From contig JBAQNP010000020.1 of NCBI GenBank assembly GCA_049303905.1, positions 78,309 to 142,308 on the forward strand: a stretch of 64,000 nucleotides of DNA, in the 5' to 3' direction. Below are positions 4,121 to 59,655 of the stretch, in pieces. Below the pieces are notes generated by a model. That model saw only the letters and a program-made list of their open reading frames with translations, was not told the origin of the DNA and did no database searches. Position numbers and translations under genes: made by a program. Each line of letters starts with the position of its first letter. The stretch's first letter is position 1. This DNA is from Candidatus Moraniibacteriota bacterium (GTDB lineage: Bacteria > Patescibacteriota > Minisyncoccia > Moranbacterales > UBA2206).

Positions 4121-4315
4121 TCTCTTTACTTTTTCTTTCCGCAAGAAAAAGTAACAAAAAGAACTCTCAGCTGAGCTCACGTGCCAATAAATTCTTTGTT
4201 TGTCGGCTAAAATTTATAATTCGGTCCGACCAAATGCGTCGGGCCTCAAACAAAATAAATTTCTTAACTCAGACTCACTCGAATTTATAGTGGCACGTTT
4301 CGCAAGGCTGAAATT
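4121..4315 (+). ncRNA. Candidate structured RNA element, copy A (unclassified)
   Basis: Starts 3 nt after the alaS stop. It has an 11-bp hairpin (TACTTTTTCTT-TCCGC-AAGAAAAAGTA), a long-range helix (ACGTGCC…GGCACGT plus ATAAATTC/GAATTTAT), an inner hairpin (GGTCCGAC/GTCGGGCC) and a 3' CGCAAGGCTGAAA tail. Copy B at 38377 has the same architecture with compensatory changes. Confidence 0.4.
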
Positions 4316-4384
4316 TAATATAAAATATAAGATACAAAAGTTTAAATAAGAGGTTGAAGTTTATTGATAAAATTTGAAGAGTGG

Positions 4385-4409
4385 ATAAAAAAGGCTAAAC
4401 TAAGCCTTT
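4385..4409 (-). terminator. Hairpin + U-run downstream of the transposase gene (minus strand)
   Basis: AAGGCT-AAACTA-AGCCTT; the T-run read on the minus strand is the plus-strand A-run at 4386-4391. Confidence 0.4.
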
Positions 4410-4416
4410 CCTGAAT

Positions 4417-5484
4417 TCAACAATCTAACGCAACACCTGTCTTCTGATAAAATACCTCATACGGAGTAAAACCGCAATGTCTTTTTCGTGGACGACTATT
4501 GATTAAATATTCAACCTGAGAAATTTCCTGAGCGGATATTTTTTCAAAATCAGTTTTCTTAGGAAAGTATCTGCGAAACAACCCATTGGCATTTTCATTA
4601 GAGCCTCTTTCTTGCGAACAATACGGATGAGCGAAAAAACAGGAAAGATTAAGTTTTTCTTCAACTGTTTCATAATCAAGATTTTCTGTTCCTCTGTCGC
4701 GTGTTAAAGTTTTTCTAAACTCTACGGGAATATTTTTTAAACGATCAATCAAAACCTTATCACATTCCTTGGTAGTTCCATTGATTGCTTTTCCGAAAAA
4801 TACAAGACCGCTCACTCTTTCATTAACACTCTTTATTCTGAATTTACTTTCACGAGAAACTAAGGTGTCATCTTCCCAATGACCGATAGTTTTTCTTTCT
4901 AAGACTTCCTCTGGTCGTATCTCTATGGAAGGCAAGGTTGAATTTCTTTCTAATTTTTGGGCTTTACGCAAGCCCTTTTTCTGTCTACGCTTATGTCGAC
5001 GAGTTAAATATTTTCTTAAATCTTCACAGCCTCTCTTAATCGCTCCATTGCCTCGTCTGTGTATTTTAGAATAAACGAATTGATAAATAGCTTCATAAGA
5101 AATTCTCATTTTCTTATCATTTGGATAATCAATTGGCAAACGCAATTTTATTTGTTCGGGAGACCAACCCAATTTTAGTTTTTTAGTAGTGTAATCTTTC
5201 AGCGGTTCGTAATTGAATTTACTTTCCCTTCCTTGATTCTTGCGATTATTTTCAGATTTTTTCTGGGCTCTATCGGCATTGTATTTTCCTCTGCCAATTC
5301 TTGGCTTCCCATCTATCTCTCGACTGACTGCGGACTTGGGTCTGTTTAGCTCCTCAGCTATCTCTGACATCAATTTTTTGTCTATACAGTACCTATTTTC
5401 AATGATTACTCTTTCTTTGTAAACTATACGTTTGAATGTTTTGAGTCCGCCGGCTCTTTTTTGTAATTTATTCATACACTTCAT
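4417..5484 (-). CDS. IS30-family DDE transposase
   Basis: N-terminal HTH, then a DDE domain with the HWEDDT (HWEGD-like) motif and the IS30-typical spacing; 355 aa. Confidence 0.85.
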   Translation of the reverse strand: MKCMNKLQKRAGGLKTFKRIVYKERVIIENRYCIDKKLMSEIAEELNRPKSAVSREIDGKPRIGRGKYNADRAQKKSENNRKNQGRESKFNYEPLKDYTTKKLKLGWSPEQIKLRLPIDYPNDKKMRISYEAIYQFVYSKIHRRGNGAIKRGCEDLRKYLTRRHKRRQKKGLRKAQKLERNSTLPSIEIRPEEVLERKTIGHWEDDTLVSRESKFRIKSVNERVSGLVFFGKAINGTTKECDKVLIDRLKNIPVEFRKTLTRDRGTENLDYETVEEKLNLSCFFAHPYCSQERGSNENANGLFRRYFPKKTDFEKISAQEISQVEYLINSRPRKRHCGFTPYEVFYQKTGVALDC

Positions 5485-5541
5485 TTTATATTATTTTTAA
5501 TGAAGTGTTGCAATTATTTCTTGAACTCGGGTTTTTTCGGT

Positions 5542-10317: not shown

Positions 10318-10457
10318 TCAGAACCACTGATTATCTCTGATTTGCACATGATTGCACGTGAAATAATATAAATAATTTAAAACTGCAGATTAGTTTTTAT
10401 TTGATAAGATTTTGATTCAGTGAAATCAGAATAATCAAATGCTAATCAGTGGTTCTG
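10318..10457. repeat. 140-bp element bounded by 15-bp perfect inverted repeats (CAGAACCACTGATTA)
   Basis: TCAGAACCACTGATTA at 10319 and TAATCAGTGGTTCTGA at 10441; the right arm overlaps the start codon of the next ORF. Confidence 0.45.
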
Positions 10458-12356
10458 AACAGTATGGCCCATCAGACATTTTATATCGATATTGACGAGG
10501 AAATAACTTCTATTGTAGAACGGCTTAAAAAAGCGCGGGCCAGTGAAATTATTATCGTCGCGCCCAAAAGAGCGTTACTTATTCAAAGTATCGTAAATTT
10601 GCGCATTCTCAAAAAAGAAGCGGATGAAAATGATATTCAATTGATGATGGTGACGCAAGATAAGCTTGGAAAAATTCTCATAGAAAAAGCGGGAATTTTT
10701 GTTCAGCAAAAAATGGACAATATCTCTGATGAGGAAATTGATTTGGGTGAAAGGGAAATGGCCGGCACTCAGAATTATTCTAATGAAAATGAGATAGCTG
10801 AAATACGGGAAAGTCAAGGTCGACTAAATAATATTGGTTCAGAAAGTTATTTTGACGAAAAAGAAGGAGCCCAGCATTTGCAAGCTAATTTAGAAAAAAA
10901 TAAAAAAATTAGAGTGACTAAGAAAAATGAAGCAGAGCAGGAAAAACTAGTTAATAGAGAATTGGTCTCGGGCGTGGGAAATATCCTTGGGAAAAAAGAG
11001 AAAAAAGTGAATTTAGATATCGCTTCTCGATCAAATATCATTCCGCCCGAACCAAGAATTTCTAAAAATTATACAGAAAATGATGAGATCCAAGAGAAAA
11101 AAATAGATAATTTTTTCTTTCAAAAAAATAATTTTGAAAATAAGCCGAGAAAACCCCACGTCGAAGAATTTAGAAATTACGATTTATCCAAAAAGGATCA
11201 CAAAGGATTTTTGATTTTTGGCTTGATTTCACTTTTGGCAGTCTTGGCTATAGTTGCCTATCTATTTTTGCCGAAAGCTACTTTGAAGATTAGCGCCAAA
11301 ACGAAAACTCAATCAGTGGACTCCAATATAACTGGCAGTACCAACGCCGTTTCTTCTGATTTTGAAAAAGAAATTATCCCAGCCAAAATAGTATCAATTG
11401 AAAATTCTGTTTCTGAAAGTTTCAAATCTTCTGGCGATAAGGCAGTTTCTAATCAGAAAGCGCGAGGGAAGATAACAATTTATAATGAATACAGCACAAG
11501 TTCACAACCACTGGTGGCAACTACCAGATTTCTAAGTAGCAATGGAAAAATTTTCCGATTGGTAAATGGAGTGACGATTCCTGGAATGGAAACATCTGGT
11601 GGGGAAACAAAGCCTGGGACAGTGGAAGCGCAAGTGATTGCTGATGAAGCGGGAGAGAGTTTTAACATTGCTCCAGACAAGTTTACTATTCCTGGGTTTG
11701 AAGGTAGTGGAGCGGAAAAATATACGAAATTTTATGCTAAATCAGATACGACAATGTCAGGTGGAGGAAGCGGAAATCAAACAGCCAATTATATAACTGA
11801 CAGTGATATAGCCGAAGCTAAAGCTAAATCGCTCACAAAACTGAATGAAGAAATTGAGAAAAAATTAAAAGAATCTGCGGGAGAAGATGTGGTCATCTTA
11901 GACGACGCGACGCAAAGCGATGAACCAATTTATAAATTGTCTAATTCAAGCGGGGACGTGGTGGACACATTTCAAATTACTATGCAAACTAAAGTTAAGG
12001 CGATTGTGGTTAGCAAGAAAGATCTAAATGAAATGGTGGCAAAAATGATTTCCAAAGCAGGTGATGGCAAGGCGAATATAGATGATAATTCTATAAAATT
12101 GGATTTTGGAAAATCCAGTGTTGATTTTGAGGCGGGAACAATTGATATAAAATTTCATGCCGTTGGCGAAATTATCCCAGATCTTAATTTAGAGGCCATG
12201 AAAAAAGAGATTTTAGGGAAAAACAACGAGGATTTAACGGCTTATCTAAGCACATTTTCTGATATCAAGGATGCGAATGTGGAATATCAGCCGTCATTTA
12301 TGAATAGTCGTATTCCGCAAATAAAAAGTCGAGTGGAGATAATACTTGACAAATAA
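10449..12356 (+). CDS. Hypothetical membrane-anchored protein (635 aa)
   Basis: One predicted transmembrane helix near residue 255 (LIFGLISLLAVLAIVAYLFL); no catalytic motif. Confidence 0.45.
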   Translation: MVLNSMAHQTFYIDIDEEITSIVERLKKARASEIIIVAPKRALLIQSIVNLRILKKEADENDIQLMMVTQDKLGKILIEKAGIFVQQKMDNISDEEIDLGEREMAGTQNYSNENEIAEIRESQGRLNNIGSESYFDEKEGAQHLQANLEKNKKIRVTKKNEAEQEKLVNRELVSGVGNILGKKEKKVNLDIASRSNIIPPEPRISKNYTENDEIQEKKIDNFFFQKNNFENKPRKPHVEEFRNYDLSKKDHKGFLIFGLISLLAVLAIVAYLFLPKATLKISAKTKTQSVDSNITGSTNAVSSDFEKEIIPAKIVSIENSVSESFKSSGDKAVSNQKARGKITIYNEYSTSSQPLVATTRFLSSNGKIFRLVNGVTIPGMETSGGETKPGTVEAQVIADEAGESFNIAPDKFTIPGFEGSGAEKYTKFYAKSDTTMSGGGSGNQTANYITDSDIAEAKAKSLTKLNEEIEKKLKESAGEDVVILDDATQSDEPIYKLSNSSGDVVDTFQITMQTKVKAIVVSKKDLNEMVAKMISKAGDGKANIDDNSIKLDFGKSSVDFEAGTIDIKFHAVGEIIPDLNLEAMKKEILGKNNEDLTAYLSTFSDIKDANVEYQPSFMNSRIPQIKSRVEIILDK

Positions 12357-12857: not shown

Positions 12858-12865
12858 ATCTTTAC

Positions 12866-12942
12866 TAATTACGAATTAAGTACGAATATACTAATAAGAA
12901 ATTCGTACATTCGTATATTAGTAAGTGATTCGTAATTCGTAA
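12866..12942. repeat. Cluster of TACGAAT / ATTCGTA palindromic motifs
   Basis: TTACGAAT, TACGAATATACTAATA, ATTCGTACATTCGTATATTAGTAA, ATTCGTAATTCGTAA upstream of rpsM. The same motif family recurs at 13369, 14575 and 48896. Confidence 0.4.
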
Positions 12943-12980
12943 GGAAAAAATCTAACTAAAATACTTAAATTTAAATTAGT

Positions 12981-13368: not shown

Positions 13369-13436
13369 ATTACGAAAATACGAATCTGGCGAAAATACGA
13401 ATTCGTACTTTCGTTTAATTCGTAAGTTCGTAAATG
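13369..13436. repeat. TACGAAT / ATTCGTA motif cluster
   Basis: TTACGAAAATACGAAT…AATACGAATTCGTAC…AATTCGTAAGTTCGTAA between rpsM and rpsK. Confidence 0.4.
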
Positions 13437-37444: not shown

Positions 37445-37454
37445 CTCGGCAAGT

Positions 37455-37580
37455 TTTGTTTTTGAGATAATTTAAACTCGAAGGTCTATTTTCTAGTTGA
37501 AATTATTTCGACAGGCAACGGCGGAACGAAACAATTTCAGATAAAATAGACCTTCTCAAACAAGAAATTATCTCAAAAAT
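37455..37580. repeat. 125-bp nested imperfect palindrome (MITE-like or complex terminator)
   Basis: Arms TTTTTGAGATAATTT…AAGGTCTATTTT and AAAATAGACCTT…AAATTATCTCAAAAA around an inner palindrome GAAATTATTTCG…CGAAACAATTTC. Confidence 0.4.
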
Positions 37581-37625
37581 AAAACTGCCTCGCGGGGAGA
37601 GGAGGGAAAGAGAAATTGAAAAATT

Positions 37626-38372: not shown

Positions 38373-38376
38373 TTCC

Positions 38377-38558
38377 TTACTTTTTCTTTCCGCAAGAAAA
38401 AGTAACAAAAAGAACTCGGAGCTATGCTACGTACTCCAATAAATTCTGCGTTCGCTGGCTAAATTTACTAGGCTTGATGAGTACATCAAGCTAAGATGAA
38501 TAAATTCTTAACGCCAGCTCACTTGAATTTATATTGGAGTACTCCGCAAGGCTGAAAA
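38377..38558 (+). ncRNA. Candidate structured RNA element, copy B (unclassified)
   Basis: Same architecture as 4121-4315: identical 5' hairpin and linker (TACTTTTTCTTTCCGCAAGAAAAAGTAACAAAAAGAACTC) and 3' tail (CCGCAAGGCTGAAA). The long-range helix is GTACTCC/GGAGTAC (ACGTGCC/GGCACGT in A) and the inner hairpin GCTTGATG/CATCAAGC (GGTCCGAC/GTCGGGCC in A). Confidence 0.4.
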
Positions 38559-38740
38559 TTTATTTCTTTATTTTATTAGGGTGGCCTTTTTCTTTTGTTA
38601 CTTTTCTTTGAGGTAAAGAAAAGTAAGTGGAGAATATTTTCTTGGCTCGAAAGAAAAAGTAAGGCTAAGTTTTTGGGAAAAGAAAAATGGCGAGGAGCTA
38701 ATTGCGGATAGAAAAAGTAAAGGTAGATAAAACATAAAAT

Positions 38741-38770
38741 AAAAAAACTCTAGATTAACTAGAGTTTTTA
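38741..38770. terminator. Bidirectional terminator
   Basis: AAAAAAACTCTAG-ATTAA-CTAGAGTTTTT between convergent genes. Confidence 0.6.
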
Positions 38771-38792: not shown

Positions 38793-40064
38793 TTATTTCA
38801 ACTCTTTTATAATATCTTCAATCTTCACAATCCTACTTTCTTTTCCGGCACGTTTTTTGATTTCTACCCAGCCCGCATCGCTACGCGAAGCGTTGCTGGC
38901 GGGTCCGCCGTACTCTAATGTTTTTTTGCTGATAACAATGCGATAGGGAATACCAATTAAATCTGAATCGGCGAATTTTTCTCCGGCGGAAGTTTCTCGG
39001 TCGTCATAGAGAACTTCAATTCCACTCTTGGATAAATTATCATAAATCTCTTGTGCCTGTTCATTCTGAGAAAGACTAATCAGATGAACTTTAAAAGGCG
39101 CTACTGCTTCTGGCCAGATAATTCCTTTTTCGTCGTTGTTAGTTTCGACAATTGTTCCCATAAGTCTTGAGATGCCTATTCCGTATGATCCCATATAAAC
39201 TAATTGCTCGTTGCTATTTTCATCTTTATATTTCAAATTAAAAGGCTCTGAAAATTTATAGCCCAAAGAAAATATATTTCCAACTTCGATGGCTTTTTTT
39301 TCAATTAATTTATTTTTATTTAAATCAAGGTCTTTTAAAACTTCATCATTAAAAACTTCTTTATTGATAGCTATATTTTTTTCTTCATCGATATATATAA
39401 TATCTTCTCCGGCTTCTGAAATAGTTTGAAATTCATGAGAATATTTAGAAAAAGTTCCGCCCGAAGCAAAAGTTAGAAATGTTCTATTTCCTAGACCAAC
39501 TCTATTAAAAATATTTTTATAAGCAATTTTAGCTTTTTCGTAATAAGTGTTATGCTCTTCTTCATTTCTAGAAAAAGAATATAGCGCTTTCCAAAAAAAT
39601 TCTCTACCTCGCATAATTCCTGATTTTGCTCTTGCTTCATTTCTAAAGACAGTTCTAATGTCGTATGCATATATCGGAAGATCTTTGTATGATGAAATAA
39701 AATTAGTCATTAAATTTGACATAGGTTCTTCGTGAGTAAATCCTAAGCCAAGTTCAGTTCCATTTTTTAGGGTGGTTTTAAACCAATTATCTACAATTTT
39801 ATCATCCCAACGATTAGTTTTTTCCCAAACTTCCTTTTTCTGAAGAGCGGTGGATTGTATCTCAACACCACCAGTTTTATTCATTTCATCCCTAACTATG
39901 GCGGATATTTTATTAATAACTTTTAATCCTAATGGTAAAATAGAATAAATTCCTGCCATTTCTTTATTGATAAATCCAGCGCGAATAAGAAGTTGTGCAT
40001 TTAGACTCACTTCGTCTTTGGGGGCATTTTTTTGAGTTTTGGTGAAAAGTTGTGATTGTTTCAT
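38793..40064 (-). CDS. proS: Proline--tRNA ligase (short form)
   Basis: Class II motifs and an N-terminal region typical of ProRS; 423 aa. Confidence 0.8.
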   Translation of the reverse strand: MKQSQLFTKTQKNAPKDEVSLNAQLLIRAGFINKEMAGIYSILPLGLKVINKISAIVRDEMNKTGGVEIQSTALQKKEVWEKTNRWDDKIVDNWFKTTLKNGTELGLGFTHEEPMSNLMTNFISSYKDLPIYAYDIRTVFRNEARAKSGIMRGREFFWKALYSFSRNEEEHNTYYEKAKIAYKNIFNRVGLGNRTFLTFASGGTFSKYSHEFQTISEAGEDIIYIDEEKNIAINKEVFNDEVLKDLDLNKNKLIEKKAIEVGNIFSLGYKFSEPFNLKYKDENSNEQLVYMGSYGIGISRLMGTIVETNNDEKGIIWPEAVAPFKVHLISLSQNEQAQEIYDNLSKSGIEVLYDDRETSAGEKFADSDLIGIPYRIVISKKTLEYGGPASNASRSDAGWVEIKKRAGKESRIVKIEDIIKELK

Positions 40065-40208
40065 TTACCCTGTTAAATAAGATTTGTATTTTACTGTAAA
40101 ATACAGCTTATTTTGATTATGCTATTTAAATTTTTTACCCAGTTTTTATTTGAATATATACAAATCTAATTTTAATTTTTTTAAATTAAAATTATTTAAC
40201 AGGGTGAA
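40065..40208. repeat. 144-bp MITE-like element with 15-17-bp terminal inverted repeats (TTCACCCTGTTAAATAA)
   Basis: TACCCTGTTAAATAA at 40066 and TTATTTAACAGGGTGAA at 40190; nested inner palindromes GATTTGTAT…ATACAAATC and TATTTTAC-TG-TAAAATA. Confidence 0.55.
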
Positions 40209-40304
40209 TTTTATATTAATGATTATCTTAAGAATATGGTTTATTTCAATGTTTGTCAAAGCAAGAATTTGTGGCAGAGGCGGTGCGTTGACCGCCTCTG
40301 ACTT

Positions 40305-42645: not shown

Positions 42646-42972
42646 ATGAAAAAGTTAAATGATAGTAAGAATGAAGATTTAATGCAAGCTATTTTGGCGC
42701 TTGAAAACAAGCAAGAAGCCAAGATGTTTTTGCGTGACCTTTTGACGGAAAAGGAAATTTTAGAATTGGGCAATCGCTGGAAAGCGGTGCAAATGTTAGA
42801 CGCGAAAAAAACTTATTCTGAAATTGAAAAAGAAACCGGCCTTAGCTCAACTACTGTGGCGCGAATTTCCAAATGGTTTCAAGCAGGCACAGGCGGATAT
42901 GGTTTAATGCTAAAAAGAATTTCTAAGAATCATCACAGAACCCCTTCTAGTTCTAGAAAGCGGTTGATTTAG
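42646..42972 (+). CDS. TrpR-like (YerC/YecD family) DNA-binding protein, copy 1
   Basis: FLRDLLTEKEILELGNRWKAVQML…TYSEIEKETGLSSTTVARISKWFQAGTGGY matches the Trp-repressor-fold YerC family. Confidence 0.7.
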   Translation: MKKLNDSKNEDLMQAILALENKQEAKMFLRDLLTEKEILELGNRWKAVQMLDAKKTYSEIEKETGLSSTTVARISKWFQAGTGGYGLMLKRISKNHHRTPSSSRKRLI

Positions 42973-43079
42973 ATTTTTAGTTATATATCTTCACAAACCT
43001 CTTTCTGGGATAGGAAGAGGTTTTTTAAATTTGGACCTCTTAATATTAGTACATTAAAAATTAAATAGAGGAGAAGAAA

Positions 43080-43934
43080 ATGAAAAAAAATCTGACTTTG
43101 GGAATTCCTTCTGGTTCACTTTTTGATTCCACAGTAGCCTTGCTTCGAAAAGTAGGAATCGAAGTGGTGGTTAACGGGCGCAATTTTATGGCGGAAATTA
43201 GAGGAAGCGATATTTTTTCTCGCGCAATAATTATGCGACCGAATGATCTGCCTCTAGCGCTCAAAAACGGAATTGTTGACGGCATCATCACGGGGCTTGA
43301 TATGTGTCTCGAAAGTGGTTTAGGAAAAAAGCTTTGTATAATAGTAGAGCTTAACTTTTCCAAAAAATCTAAAGTGCCGGCTCGAGTGGTAGTTTTCTGT
43401 CGAGAAAGTGATTTAGATGAAATAGTTGATTCCGGAGAAATCTTAGTTTCATCAGAATATATGGAATTGGCGAAAACTATTTTCAAAAAATCGCAGATAA
43501 TTTTCTCTACTGGTTCGACTGAAATCAAAGTCGCTATTGCGGAATTTGGTTTTCGATACGGCGTTGGCGTGGTCGAAAGTGGAAAGAGTCTTAAGGACAA
43601 CAATCTCAAGATTGTGAAAGTTATCCTGACCACTCCGGTAATTTTCGCTGTAAGAAAAGAAAACCTGGAATTTCAAATCTTCGGCCAAATGCTCAAGGGT
43701 GCGTTGGAAGCCGAGATTTATCAGTTGGTAAAATTCAACGCGGATTCAAAGGACAAGGATCAGTTGATTGAAATTTTGCCAGCTATGGAATCGCCAACTA
43801 TTAGCAATCTTGCTGATGGCATGATTGCAATCGAGACGGTTATTGCTAAAGAAGCAATCACCGATTCGATCATAGCAATTAGGAAAAATGGCGGCAGAAA
43901 TATTCTCGTACAAAACATTAACATCTCCGTGTAA
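43080..43934 (+). CDS. hisG: ATP phosphoribosyltransferase, long form (HisG), copy 1
   Basis: Full-length match to long-form HisG: N-terminal LTLGIPSGSLFDSTVALLRKVGIEV, PRPP loop GVVESGKSL, C-terminal regulatory domain ILPAMESPTISNLADG…GGRNILVQNI. Confidence 0.7.
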   Translation: MKKNLTLGIPSGSLFDSTVALLRKVGIEVVVNGRNFMAEIRGSDIFSRAIIMRPNDLPLALKNGIVDGIITGLDMCLESGLGKKLCIIVELNFSKKSKVPARVVVFCRESDLDEIVDSGEILVSSEYMELAKTIFKKSQIIFSTGSTEIKVAIAEFGFRYGVGVVESGKSLKDNNLKIVKVILTTPVIFAVRKENLEFQIFGQMLKGALEAEIYQLVKFNADSKDKDQLIEILPAMESPTISNLADGMIAIETVIAKEAITDSIIAIRKNGGRNILVQNINISV

Positions 43935-50036: not shown

Positions 50037-50052
50037 TTTAAAATGATGATTA

Positions 50053-50196
50053 TTTCATGCACTTAAATATATCGAACGCGCTTCGGCGTGAAAGTTTTTT
50101 GGAAAAGCAAAGCCTCGACAGTAAGGCAATCTAATCTATAAAAATAGATTACCAATCGCCTTCGTAAGCTCTCAATATATTTAAGTGTATGAAATC
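50053..50196. repeat. ~145-bp element bounded by 18-20-bp inverted repeats (TCATGCACTTAAATATAT)
   Basis: ATTTCATGCACTTAAATATAT at 50053 and ATATATTTAAGTGTATGAAAT at 50176, with two inner hairpins; just upstream of cysK. Confidence 0.4.
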
Positions 50197-57940: not shown

Positions 57941-58267
57941 ATGAAAAAGTTAAATGATAATAAAACTGAAGATTTAATGCAAGCTATTTTGGCGTTGGAA
58001 AGCAAAAAAGAAGCCAAGATGTTTTTGCGTGACCTTTTGACGGAAAAGGAAATTTTGGAATTGGGTAATCGCTGGAAAGCGGTGCAAATGTTAGACCAGA
58101 AAAAAACTTATTCTGAAATCGAAAAAGAAACTGGCCTTAGTTCAACCACAGTGGCGCGAATCTCCAAATGGTTTCAAGAAGGCACAGGTGGATACGGCTT
58201 AATACTAAACAGAATTTCCAAAAATCATCACAAAACCTCTTCTAGTTCTAGAAAGCGGTTGATTTAG
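57941..58267 (+). CDS. TrpR-like (YerC/YecD family) DNA-binding protein, copy 2
   Basis: About 90% identical to 42646-42972. The ORF-track start at 57905 is a TTG; the ATG at 57941 matches the paralog. Confidence 0.7.
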   Translation: MKKLNDNKTEDLMQAILALESKKEAKMFLRDLLTEKEILELGNRWKAVQMLDQKKTYSEIEKETGLSSTTVARISKWFQEGTGGYGLILNRISKNHHKTSSSSRKRLI

Positions 58268-58371
58268 ATTTTTAGTTATTTATCTTCACAAACCTCTTTC
58301 TGGGATAGGAAGAGGTTTTTTTTATGCCTCTTAATATTGGTACATTAAAAATTAAATGTAAGGAGAAGAAA

Positions 58372-58773
58372 ATGAAAATCAACAAATCAATGATTAACAG
58401 TGAAATTTTGAACAAGGTAAGTTTCGGCAGAGCCATTCATCGGGATGGAACTAAGGCGCCGGACTTGATTGATGTGATTTTGCAAAATCATCTCAACGGA
58501 CAAGTGCTCTATGGTGCTTCTATGAACCAGGAAAATTTCGCAGAAACATTGGAAATTGGTTTTGTTGTTCTTTATAGCAAATCCAGAAAGACCCGCTGGT
58601 TCAAAGGAGAAACAAGCGGAGACAAGCTTCAAGTCGTTAATATTTTCTTAAATTGCAATAACGATCAATTATTGATCCAAGTTATTCCAATTGGAGCAGG
58701 CGTGTGTCACGAAAAAGATGAAAATGGCATTTCAAAACCAACATGCTTCAGCAAATTGTTGCTGGAAGTATAA
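58372..58773 (+). CDS. hisI: Phosphoribosyl-AMP cyclohydrolase (HisI)
   Basis: SRKTRWFKGETSGDKLQVVNIFLNCNNDQLLIQVIPIGAGVCH matches the HisI core. The start is set at the ATG preceded by AAGGAGAAGAAA (track start 58324). Confidence 0.7.
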   Translation: MKINKSMINSEILNKVSFGRAIHRDGTKAPDLIDVILQNHLNGQVLYGASMNQENFAETLEIGFVVLYSKSRKTRWFKGETSGDKLQVVNIFLNCNNDQLLIQVIPIGAGVCHEKDENGISKPTCFSKLLLEV

Positions 58774-58800
58774 ACTAAAAAAACAAAAGGAGAAAAAGAA

Positions 58801-59655
58801 ATGAAAAAAAATTTGATTTTGGGAATTCCTTCTGGTTCACTTTTTGATTCTACGGTGGCTTTGCTTCGAAAAGTAGGAATTGAAGTGGTGGTTAATGGGC
58901 GCAATTTTATGGCAGAAATTAGAGGAAGTGATATTTTTTCTCGCGCGATAATTATGAGACCTAATGATCTTCCTCTGGCGCTCAAAAACGGAATTGTTGA
59001 CGGCATCATCACGGGACTTGATATGTGCCTAGAAAGTGGCTTGGAAAAAGAGCTTTGTATAATGGTAGAGCTTAACTTTTCCAAAAAATCCAAAGTGCCG
59101 GCTCGAGTCGTGGTTTTCTGCCGAGAAAATGATTGTGATGAAATAGTTGATTCAGGAGAAATCTTAGTTTCATCAGAATATATGGAATTGGCGAGAAATA
59201 TTTTCAAAAAATCGAAAATAGTTTTCTCTACTGGCTCGACTGAAATCAAAGTCGCTATTGAGGAATTTGGTTTCCGATACGGCGTTGGCGTGGTCGAAAG
59301 TGGAAAGAGCCTTAAGGACAATAATCTCAAGATTGTGAAAGTTATCCTGACAACCCCGGTGATTTTTGCTGTGAGAAAAGAAAGTCTGGAATTTGAAATT
59401 TTCGGCCAAATGCTCAAGGGGGCGCTGGAAGCGGAGATGTATCAATTGGTGAAATTCAATGCAGATTCAAAAGACAAGGATCGGCTGATTGATATTTTGC
59501 CTGCTATGGAATCACCAACCATCAGCAATCTTGCTGATGGCATGATCGCAATCGAGACTGTTATTACTAAAGAAAAAATCACTGATTCGATTATAGCAAT
59601 CAAGAAATCGGGAGGCAGAAATATTCTAGTACAAAACTTGAATATTTCTCTGTAA
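58801..59655 (+). CDS. hisG: ATP phosphoribosyltransferase, long form (HisG), copy 2
   Basis: About 90% identical to 43080-43934. Confidence 0.7.
   Translation: MKKNLILGIPSGSLFDSTVALLRKVGIEVVVNGRNFMAEIRGSDIFSRAIIMRPNDLPLALKNGIVDGIITGLDMCLESGLEKELCIMVELNFSKKSKVPARVVVFCRENDCDEIVDSGEILVSSEYMELARNIFKKSKIVFSTGSTEIKVAIEEFGFRYGVGVVESGKSLKDNNLKIVKVILTTPVIFAVRKESLEFEIFGQMLKGALEAEMYQLVKFNADSKDKDRLIDILPAMESPTISNLADGMIAIETVITKEKITDSIIAIKKSGGRNILVQNLNISL

Follow-up and report, generated by a model that had tools for sequence, protein, structure and literature searches.

A dispersed hairpin-and-rod repeat family, probably mobile, behind genes of Moranbacteria-lineage genomes

The DNA analysed in our study (the window) is a stretch of 64,000 nucleotides from Candidatus Moraniibacteriota bacterium (assembly GCA_049303905.1, contig JBAQNP010000020.1). 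It contains two copies of a hairpin-and-rod element: alaS lies 5' of copy A, and a ydjC-like gene lies 5' of copy B, which faces proS. This element represents a dispersed, structured repeat family of genomes of the Moranbacteria lineage (Parcubacteria, candidate phyla radiation, CPR). The family is new and probably of a mobile nature. With moderate confidence we interpret its members as non-autonomous elements that are handled as folded single-stranded DNA and are passively co-transcribed in the 3' untranslated regions (3' UTRs) of genes.

A covarying structure in many copies

An initial annotation of the window had described a two-copy element. Both copies belong, however, to a multi-copy family dispersed across many genomes. 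When one genome of each species was scanned for a 22-mer taken from the 5' module, 103 stretches were obtained. Most of them stem from about 20 metagenome-assembled genomes (MAGs) that carry the label Moranbacteria, Moraniibacteriota or Parcubacteria, each with 3-6 (or more) copies having the exact head. From 58 copies we constructed an alignment (A2) and from this a covariance model (R1). In the collected loci, which are cited below by their L numbers, R1 detected 88 full copies, including diverged 'type-2' copies lacking the 22-mer. In the window it detected the two full copies and one partial inverted copy, and no more. No match was obtained in plasmid and phage collections by BLAST or in IMG/VR by a scan with the head 22-mer, and a literature search on CPR or Moranbacteria repeats, RNA motifs or the element sequence gave nothing relevant.

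In the unit, a 12-bp A/T hairpin (P1) is joined by an A-rich linker (CAAAAAGAAC) to a closed rod of ~140 nt, which is followed by an A-rich tail. Five or six short helices with conserved asymmetric internal loops form the rod. The unpaired motifs kept in all types are CAAA(A)AGAAC in the linker, GCTAAA opposite TTCTTAACGC in the rod and CGCAA near the tail. A AATACAAAATA-type sequence after the tail recurs at many unrelated loci.

The A2 consensus comprises 42 pairs, 23 of them with compensatory double changes. Here 95.2% of the cells are paired, compared to 40-52% if the 3' partners are slid, and double changes occur in 346 cells compared to 38-68 in the slid controls. In the 88 copies, the alignment of which was fitted to model R1 itself, double compensatory changes affect 41 of 48 pairs, including 9 of 12 in P1 (diverged copies included). 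The share of paired cells is 95.7% (38-54% with partner columns slid) and the covariation score is 0.485 (≤0.096 in slid controls). These values uphold the initial view that the structure is constrained and that its copies are not decaying duplicates.

Exactly two occurrences of the 40-nt 5' module TACTTTTTCTTTCCGCAAGAAAAAGTAACAAAAAGAACTC were found in the window, at 4127-4166 and 38378-38417 of the plus strand (chance expectation none). The 3' tail CGCAAGGCTGAAA is found in register at 4301-4313 in copy A and 38545-38557 in copy B; taken alone, this 13-mer is within chance if 2 mismatches are permitted. Both copies fold into the 12-bp hairpin followed by a long closed multi-loop rod, with RNA minimum free energies of -58.4 (A) and -60.6 kcal/mol (B); relative to dinucleotide-shuffled sequences, z is -6.8 for A and -6.9 for B. 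Folding was as good as that of the plus-strand RNA when the complementary strand was used (z -6.4) or DNA parameters were applied (z -7.1). Compared along the consensus structure of the family, the two copies are distinguished by 8 compensated pairs and 2 cells that are unpaired. The presence of two look-alike elements with the same fold, a common 5' module and a common tail was thereby borne out, and so was the long-range helix ACGTGCC/GGCACGT in A versus GTACTCC/GGAGTAC in B, in which 5 of 7 pairs are changed and all are compensated (columns 58-64 with 179-185).

Several details of the initial annotation have to be revised. A start 3 nt past the stop codon applies to copy B (core at 3 nt, ydjC-like gene) but not to copy A (7 nt, alaS). 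The C-GCAA-G, taken for a tetraloop-like motif, is no hairpin loop but part of the basal internal loop (3' strand), and this position differs among the copies in A2 (CGCGAGG, CCACATGG, TTGTAGG). A switch had been proposed on the basis of a 'second ATAAATTC'. This segment is the 3' strand of the inner helix AAATTTAC/GTAAATTT, which covaries family-wide, and the alternative pairing is not preserved in other subfamilies, so that a switch is not supported. The statement that the element matches no known RNA family remained valid: at gathering score, Rfam 15 returned 4 tRNAs and nothing else for the whole window, and a search with both copies at E<10 returned sub-threshold matches only (best 25.6 bits compared to a cut-off of 69).

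Copies of the family recombine with each other. Within one genome, paralogs from different loci share 95-99% identity. For 18 copies an inverted partner was found at a distance of 12-60 nt, tail-to-tail in 17 of the 18, and these dimers have inverted heads at their outer ends. Truncated copies are also present. In the chimeric copies of L014, L044 and L056 the two arms stem from different subfamilies, so that the helix is broken. Apical hairpin modules are exchanged between types, and a comparison of copy B with its ortholog in L044 revealed a replaced apical module (52% identity, flanks ~90%) and a partner copy that is intact in L044 but deleted in B.

Related hairpins were observed in other taxa, too. 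In CAJONN01 contigs of a MAG labelled Marinilabiliaceae (L004-L102) at least 24 near-identical related copies are located at contig ends, each with a conserved 75-nt 5' block (CTCAAGTTTCGCAAGTAGAAATGTACTGCAAAC...); this looks like a recent burst that fragmented the assembly. A Clostridia MAG (L027, L030, L077, L092) contains intergenic tandem arrays or inverted pairs of 10-12-bp hairpins, and the same arrays or pairs occur in Christensenellaceae/Eubacteriales (L020, L035, L051, L057, L060, L072, L081). These hairpins have the form xxxCTTTTCTT/AAGAAAAGxxx followed by CAAAAGAAC, even in genomes with 57-61% G+C, and one spacer with such a hairpin is kept at the orthologous site in seven records.

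Placement, strand polarity and pairing chemistry

Copies persist only downstream of genes. The copies occupy 50 intergenic spacers, 19 between convergent and 31 between co-directional genes, and no divergent spacer is occupied. Convergent spacers thus account for 38% of the occupied ones compared to 13.5% of all spacers in the same loci (p=1e-5), and the background for divergent spacers is 10.9% (p=0.005). In co-directional contexts the orientation to the flanking genes is arbitrary (18 versus 17). The head is located 2-9 nt from stop codons or 8-20 nt from start codons. The flanks exhibit a pyrimidine at -1 and -2, and neither a target motif beyond this nor a target-site duplication was found in them. 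An association with aminoacyl-tRNA synthetase genes (alaS, proS, thrS) was considered but seems unlikely: three synthetase neighbours among about 45 loci is near expectation, and the thrS cases represent one orthologous locus.

In co-directional loci, gene starts facing the head are often 8-23 nt away and those facing the tail never less than ~35-40 nt. This suggests that transcription can exit on the head side into the next gene, but not on the tail side.

Canonical terminators lie beyond both window copies (Table 1), and therefore the plus strand of the copies belongs to the 3' UTR of alaS and ydjC, respectively. No T-run follows the tail in either of them; in the family, a T-run of at least 5 nt within 15 nt of the tail was detected on the plus strand in 13 of 60 copies. 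On the minus strand a U-rich tract (GAG-UUCUUUUUGUUACUUUUUCUU) always follows the rod, starting 3 nt beyond it (offset 3-5 nt). Another canonical terminator within 160 nt was found for only about 15% of the copies.

This arrangement has to be considered with respect to a host-selected cis-acting RNA, i.e. a transcribed hairpin-and-rod of whatever origin, kept for work at gene 3' ends, the pairing of which would be selected as RNA. Candidate roles are bidirectional termination or attenuation, protection against 3' exonucleases and RNase III-type processing. The restriction to sites downstream of genes with enrichment between convergent ones agrees with such a role, as do the tight convergent pairs in L071, L022, L103 and L032, where the element is almost the sole sequence between two stop codons. 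The same applies to the lack of another terminator at about 85% of the copies, to the U-rich and T tracts, to the position of both window copies within 3' UTRs and to the retention at thrS in diverged genomes with compensated pairs. On the other hand, both window copies are followed by separate canonical terminators and are thus not needed as terminators there. Some copies are located in operon junctions, 8-20 nt before the next start codon (e.g. infB-rbfA), where efficient termination would be harmful. The alaS copy is absent from most relatives, which have no replacement structure of such kind. In addition, G:U pairs are nearly absent on either strand, which is unusual for selected RNA helices, and the orientation of copies tracks the G-rich strand of the chromosome instead of the transcribed strand. 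Altogether we consider a host-selected RNA an unlikely explanation, but one to be taken seriously.

With regard to polarity, the orientation of the element follows the G-rich chromosome strand and not the direction of transcription. With elements masked, 39 of 46 loci with solo copies have the plus strand of the element on the G-rich strand; the mean skew is +0.098 (binomial p=2e-6). Split by gene strand, the skew amounts to +0.168 where genes are co-oriented and to 0.0 where they are opposite. Symmetric values would be expected if the coding strand alone were responsible, and the observed ones therefore indicate a residual polarity beyond the coding strand. Adjacent solo pairs on one contig share the same strand in 10 of 10 cases at distances up to 185 kb. 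In the window, where both copies are on the plus strand, the GC skew of this strand is +0.10 to +0.27 throughout.

Functional RNA helices usually hold several per cent G:U pairs, and single-step G:U intermediates are common. In our alignment G:U accounts for 31 of 4165 cells (0.7%), which is below A:C (70) and other mismatches (109). Compensation is almost purely Watson-Crick. The wobble asymmetry is small and independent of the strand transcribed by neighbouring genes. Both results, like the strand polarity, favour DNA over RNA as the level at which pairing matters. The initial annotation had regarded compensatory change as a means to tell an RNA from a miniature inverted-repeat transposable element (MITE). 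This test does not discriminate, because REPIN-type mobile DNA shows compensatory changes across its hairpins as well (PMC3116915).

The initial annotation had proposed a dedicated novel RNA. A stand-alone family of structured RNA genes, trans-acting or switch-like and expressed from each copy, would be in line with the strong covariation, the conserved unpaired motifs, the missing Rfam match and the conserved 75-nt 5' extension in the Marinilabiliaceae MAG. Promoter-like sequences are present at or in the window copies, too: TTAAC(T/G)-16-TATA(G/T)T on the plus strand of both, and TTTAAA-18-TATATT, restricted to copy A, on the minus strand at its tail. We nevertheless regard such RNA genes as very improbable. 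An internal promoter (TTAACG-16-TATAnT) had to be rejected as a family feature, as the -10-like hexamer is confined to the ATAAATTC subfamily. The proposed alternative pairing is not conserved either. There are no conserved flanking promoters or terminators, and the head is 2-20 nt from stop or start codons. Many copies are truncated, chimeric or dimerised, and copy number and positions vary between close relatives. Inverted dimers, fragments, chimeras, module swaps, the insertion polymorphism at alaS, the arbitrary orientation to genes, the G:U content and the polarity with respect to the G-rich strand all argue against a dedicated RNA. The window copies, which are in 3' UTRs upstream of canonical terminators, may still have a role at the RNA level.

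The two copies of the window and their surroundings

Table 1. Coordinates of the hairpin-and-rod copies and associated features in the window
Feature	Position	Strand	Details and evidence
Copy A, core	4125..4313	+	R1 covariance model 170.7 bits; fold; alignment A2. P1 hairpin 4126-4154, A-rich linker 4155-4168, closed rod 4169-4311
Copy A, A-rich tail extension (ATTTAATATAAAATATAAGATACAAAAG...), probably part of the inserted unit	4314..4352	+	AATACAAAATA-type recurrence; comparison of filled and empty sites
alaS canonical terminator, left part (AAAAAAGGCTAAACTAAGCCTTT)	4387..4409	.	Intact in L036; equivalents in L109 and L110
IS30-family insertion sequence	4410..5531	-	Open reading frame (ORF) 4417-5484, NF033563 223 bits; site empty in L036 and L109
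Copy B, core	38376..38557	+	R1 171.3 bits; fold; orthologs downstream of ydjC in L044 and L032. P1 hairpin 38377-38405, rod ~38420-38555
Inverted 'type-2' partner remnant	38558..38627	-	Rod deleted; head hairpin TTACTTTTCTTT-GAGGT-AAAGAAAAGTAA kept, 38598-38626
Cluster of further inverted head fragments	38637..38722	-	Inverted-repeat pairs I2, I4 and I6 with copy B head. Hairpin 38637-38664, type-2' head fragment (TTTTGGGAAAAGAAAAATGGCGAGGAG) ~38665-38697, head fragment (TTGCGGATAGAAAAAGTAA) 38702-38720
Canonical bidirectional terminator between ydjC/copy B and proS	38743..38769	.	11 pairs and T-run

The AlaRS of the window is 100% identical to a protein from a Candidatus Moraniibacteriota MAG. 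The site downstream of alaS is filled in the window, in L104 (AlaRS 89% identical), where the contig ends within the head of the element, and in L036. It is empty in L105-L108 (AlaRS 86-83%), L109 (80%), L110 (78%) and L111 (73%). The element-free loci L109 and L110 share the terminator, the promoter and the downstream gene with the window, which indicates that copy A was inserted between the stop codon and the terminator of alaS and is specific to a shallow clade. The insertion comprises ~6 nt, the 188-nt core and an A-rich tail of ~40 nt. According to the comparison of filled and empty sites, its end falls just before GTTGAAGTTTATTGATAAA; a target duplication was not discernible at this insertion. 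A similar situation was found at the infB-rbfA junction, which is 204 nt long and filled in L010 and L034 and only 6-9 nt long in L069 and L082.

In the element-free loci L105-L108, the region 1-60 nt past the alaS stop codon contains tandem ATAAAGT-type repeats (GTTCATAAAGTCTATAAAGTCCGTAAAG), followed by a canonical terminator.

Copy A had initially been described as abutting an IS30 element. IS30 is indeed its neighbour but starts ~96 nt beyond it, as a separate insertion into the alaS terminator, which it splits, with AAAAAAGGCTAAACTAAGCCTTT on one side and the T-run on the other; a T duplication of 2-3 nt at this insertion is probable. At the orthologous site of L036 the element is present and IS30 absent. 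Judged by these sites, IS30 inserted later than, and independently of, copy A. A tblastn search of the collected loci with the IS30 transposase matched only the window and a distant homolog in L007.

Could the element be an end or a MITE derivative of this IS30 or of another classical DDE transposon? Copy A is only ~100 nt away from the transposase gene, and the inverted outer heads of dimers resemble terminal inverted repeats. But IS30 is missing from the filled L036 site and, save for the L007 homolog, from all other loci, and it has its own boundaries inside the split terminator. Solo copies have no terminal inverted repeats, no target-site duplication was seen, and the helices covary instead of keeping their sequence as inverted repeats bound by a transposase would. 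A classical MITE of the unrelated neighbouring IS30 was therefore rejected, and we consider a DDE origin of any kind extremely improbable.

The further hairpins after copy B, already mentioned in the initial annotation, exist and are remnants of inverted partner copies. The head of the partner remnant forms a 35-nt inverted repeat with the head of copy B (83% complementary), and a partial R1 match (38511-38627, 39 bits) extends over it. The remnant is collinear with an intact dimer in L096. The sequences of the adjacent cluster also terminate type-2 copies in L095, L007 and L044. Copy B is accordingly best described as a decayed dimer.

The window contains some other repeats. Between an ABC-transporter gene and ydjC, a second, unrelated rod-like hairpin of ~140 nt (37448-37590, z -7.3) is 98% conserved in L044 and 87% in L046, above the level of neighbouring coding DNA. 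Further long inverted repeats of unlike sequence were detected at 10318-10458, 12859-12945, 13370-13433, 40063-40209, 50052-50195 and 58232-58319; possibly this genome is generally rich in long hairpins. In 42646-43349 and 57941-59070, two stretches, each no shorter than 300 nt, are duplicated with ~90% identity at a distance of 15.3-15.7 kb and may represent paralogous genes.

Relation to known repeats, proposed mechanism and significance

The element resembles the REP/BIME/REPIN-RAYT system in several respects. In both, the palindromic units are extragenic and occur only on the 3' side of genes (here 0 of 50 occupied spacers were divergent, with convergent ones enriched), inverted doublets form long hairpins, mosaic clusters alternate in orientation (here 18 inverted dimers and the inverted head fragments after copy B), and terminal inverted repeats and target duplications are lacking. 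Compensatory changes in the hairpin are common to both (PMC3116915), and recognition as folded single-stranded DNA, described for REPINs (PMC8266576), is presumed for both. In contrast to REPs of 20-40 nt, the unit is ~185 nt long, with a multi-loop rod of 140 nt and a single palindrome of 29 nt. Its head is a 12-5-12 palindrome starting with YTTAC, the GTAG tetranucleotide is absent, no RAYT gene flanked by hairpin-and-rod units was found in the collected loci, and the host belongs to a CPR lineage.

Moranbacteria do encode Y1 transposases. In L049 (2115-3055), from the closely related MAG UBA4824, a motif screen revealed a single gene for an IS200-like Y1 transposase of 182 aa (PF01797, 29.4 bits). 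It is surrounded by four GTAG-type palindromes (GT(A/C)(A/G)GGACAGGT-N4-6-ACCTGTCC), three of which are within ORFs, with one or two each in the upstream gene and the Y1 ORF itself. The arrangement resembles a REPtron, but its repeat is not the hairpin-and-rod element. We rejected its Y1_Tnp as the cognate enzyme, for the GTAG palindromes that accompany it are missing in the window.

With IS200/IS605 elements and PATEs the element shares ends defined by structure as well as the lack of inverted repeats and of target duplication. A bias in orientation toward the lagging-strand template is a published signature of the single-strand transposition of IS200/IS605 (PMC5027513), and the 39 of 46 solo copies on the G-rich strand may represent a comparable replication-related bias. 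Differing from IS200/IS605, the element has a hairpin at its left end only, the right end being the base of the rod and the A-rich tail. No conserved target of 4-5 nt was identified, tnpA or tnpB are not associated, and a parent bearing tnpA was not found in the collected loci. The element works like a derivative of REP/REPIN or IS200/IS605, without the GTAG motif, the cognate Y1 gene and the second subterminal hairpin that define membership.

Repeats of 100-200 nt folding into long hairpins are also known as Correia elements in Neisseria, ERIC in enterobacteria and BOX and RUP in pneumococci. They are located in 3' UTRs or operon spacers and can alter termination or mRNA stability. Size, long hairpin, position and the modular or mosaic composition (as in BOX) are similar to our element, but there is no sequence relationship. 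Correia and RUP possess terminal inverted repeats and TA-type duplications, both lacking here, and to our knowledge a strong strand polarity is not a feature of any of these families. Integron attC sites likewise directly follow an ORF and conserve fold over sequence, and they are recombined as folded single strands with a strand choice tied to replication. The element, however, is found in both orientations behind scattered housekeeping genes (alaS, proS, thrS, infB), and cassette arrays, an integrase or R/L box pairs (RYYYAAC/GTTRRRY) are absent here. With intrinsic terminators it has in common a hairpin at the 3' end of a gene, an A-rich tract upstream and a U-rich tract that follows the rod on the minus strand and, in part of the subfamilies, also on the plus strand. 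Its stem-loop is about ten times longer and the U-tract is offset by 3-5 nt or absent.

The loci compared show that copies have spread, or have been moved, into the narrow interval separating a stop codon from the signal that follows it. For the non-autonomous element favoured above we infer the following mechanism. What is conserved is the fold itself. It would most likely be recognised during replication, as folded single-stranded DNA of one particular chromosome strand, and P1 with the linker would serve as the handle. The reader would be a trans-acting, structure-specific enzyme of the HUH/Y1 type (IS200/IS605-RAYT) or an analogous one. On this reading the two window copies are carried along passively in the 3' UTR transcripts of alaS and ydjC, ahead of the canonical terminators. 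A secondary role for the host as 3'-end hairpin, attenuator, terminator or stabiliser is plausible in view of the retention at thrS, the conserved asymmetric loops, the few other terminators and the U-rich or T tracts.

Several observations weigh against this mechanism. At the collected loci there is neither a recurrent neighbouring protein family that might be a transposase nor an ORF bracketed by inverted heads. A tblastn search with an IS200 TnpA query gave nothing significant, and no Y1 gene flanked by the hairpin-and-rod repeat was found in ~0.6 Mb of collected loci, which are not whole genomes. No target-site duplication or defined target motif was recovered from the flanks. An excision or insertion event was not directly observed. 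At the thrS locus, copies are kept in deeply diverged genomes with heads identical in 45 of 45 positions and flanks of ~72% identity, while the rods differ by 5-12 compensated pairs per comparison. This retention, together with the conserved asymmetric loops, would also fit a function selected by the host, although recombination among copies, as seen for copy B and L044, weakens the reading that the thrS copies evolved in place. As only ~15% of the copies have another terminator, many genes may rely on the element. The test for GC skew was carried out on 8-kb blocks of MAG contigs and not on mapped replichores. The wobble asymmetry weakly favours folding of the minus strand (70 A:C versus 31 G:U cells; 24 versus 17 events), which does not match the strand expected from a lagging-template model. 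Finally, as an exact 22-mer served to seed the collection, part of the invariance seen for the head among the first 58 copies results from this choice of seed.

A more far-reaching idea, which we regard as rather doubtful, is that the invariant 12-bp hairpin and the CAAAAAGAAC linker, found also in records labelled Marinilabiliaceae and Clostridia/Christensenellaceae, are the handle of an undescribed cross-phylum system that copies a module of ~185 nt behind genes onto one strand. This could be a new type of single-strand DNA (or RNA-templated) mobile element. It could also be a 'portable 3'-end module' adopted by the streamlined CPR genomes as a gene-end signal; the conserved TTAAC internal loop would in this case be the binding site of a conserved host factor.

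For screens, the family is a warning: its strong covariation will lead to false calls of novel non-coding RNAs unless copy number, orientation and G:U content are checked. Assemblies are broken by such repeats, as L104 and the Marinilabiliaceae contigs end within copies. CPR/Patescibacteria genomes are about 1 Mb in size, tightly packed and usually described as repeat-poor. Here, structured repeats of 185 nt occupy a noticeable share of the intergenic DNA of such genomes, are retained behind the essential genes alaS, thrS and infB and are polarised along the chromosome. The family thereby offers a handle on the survival of mobile DNA in streamlined genomes, on the marking of gene ends in a lineage with poorly known terminators and on the direction of replication in fragmentary MAGs.

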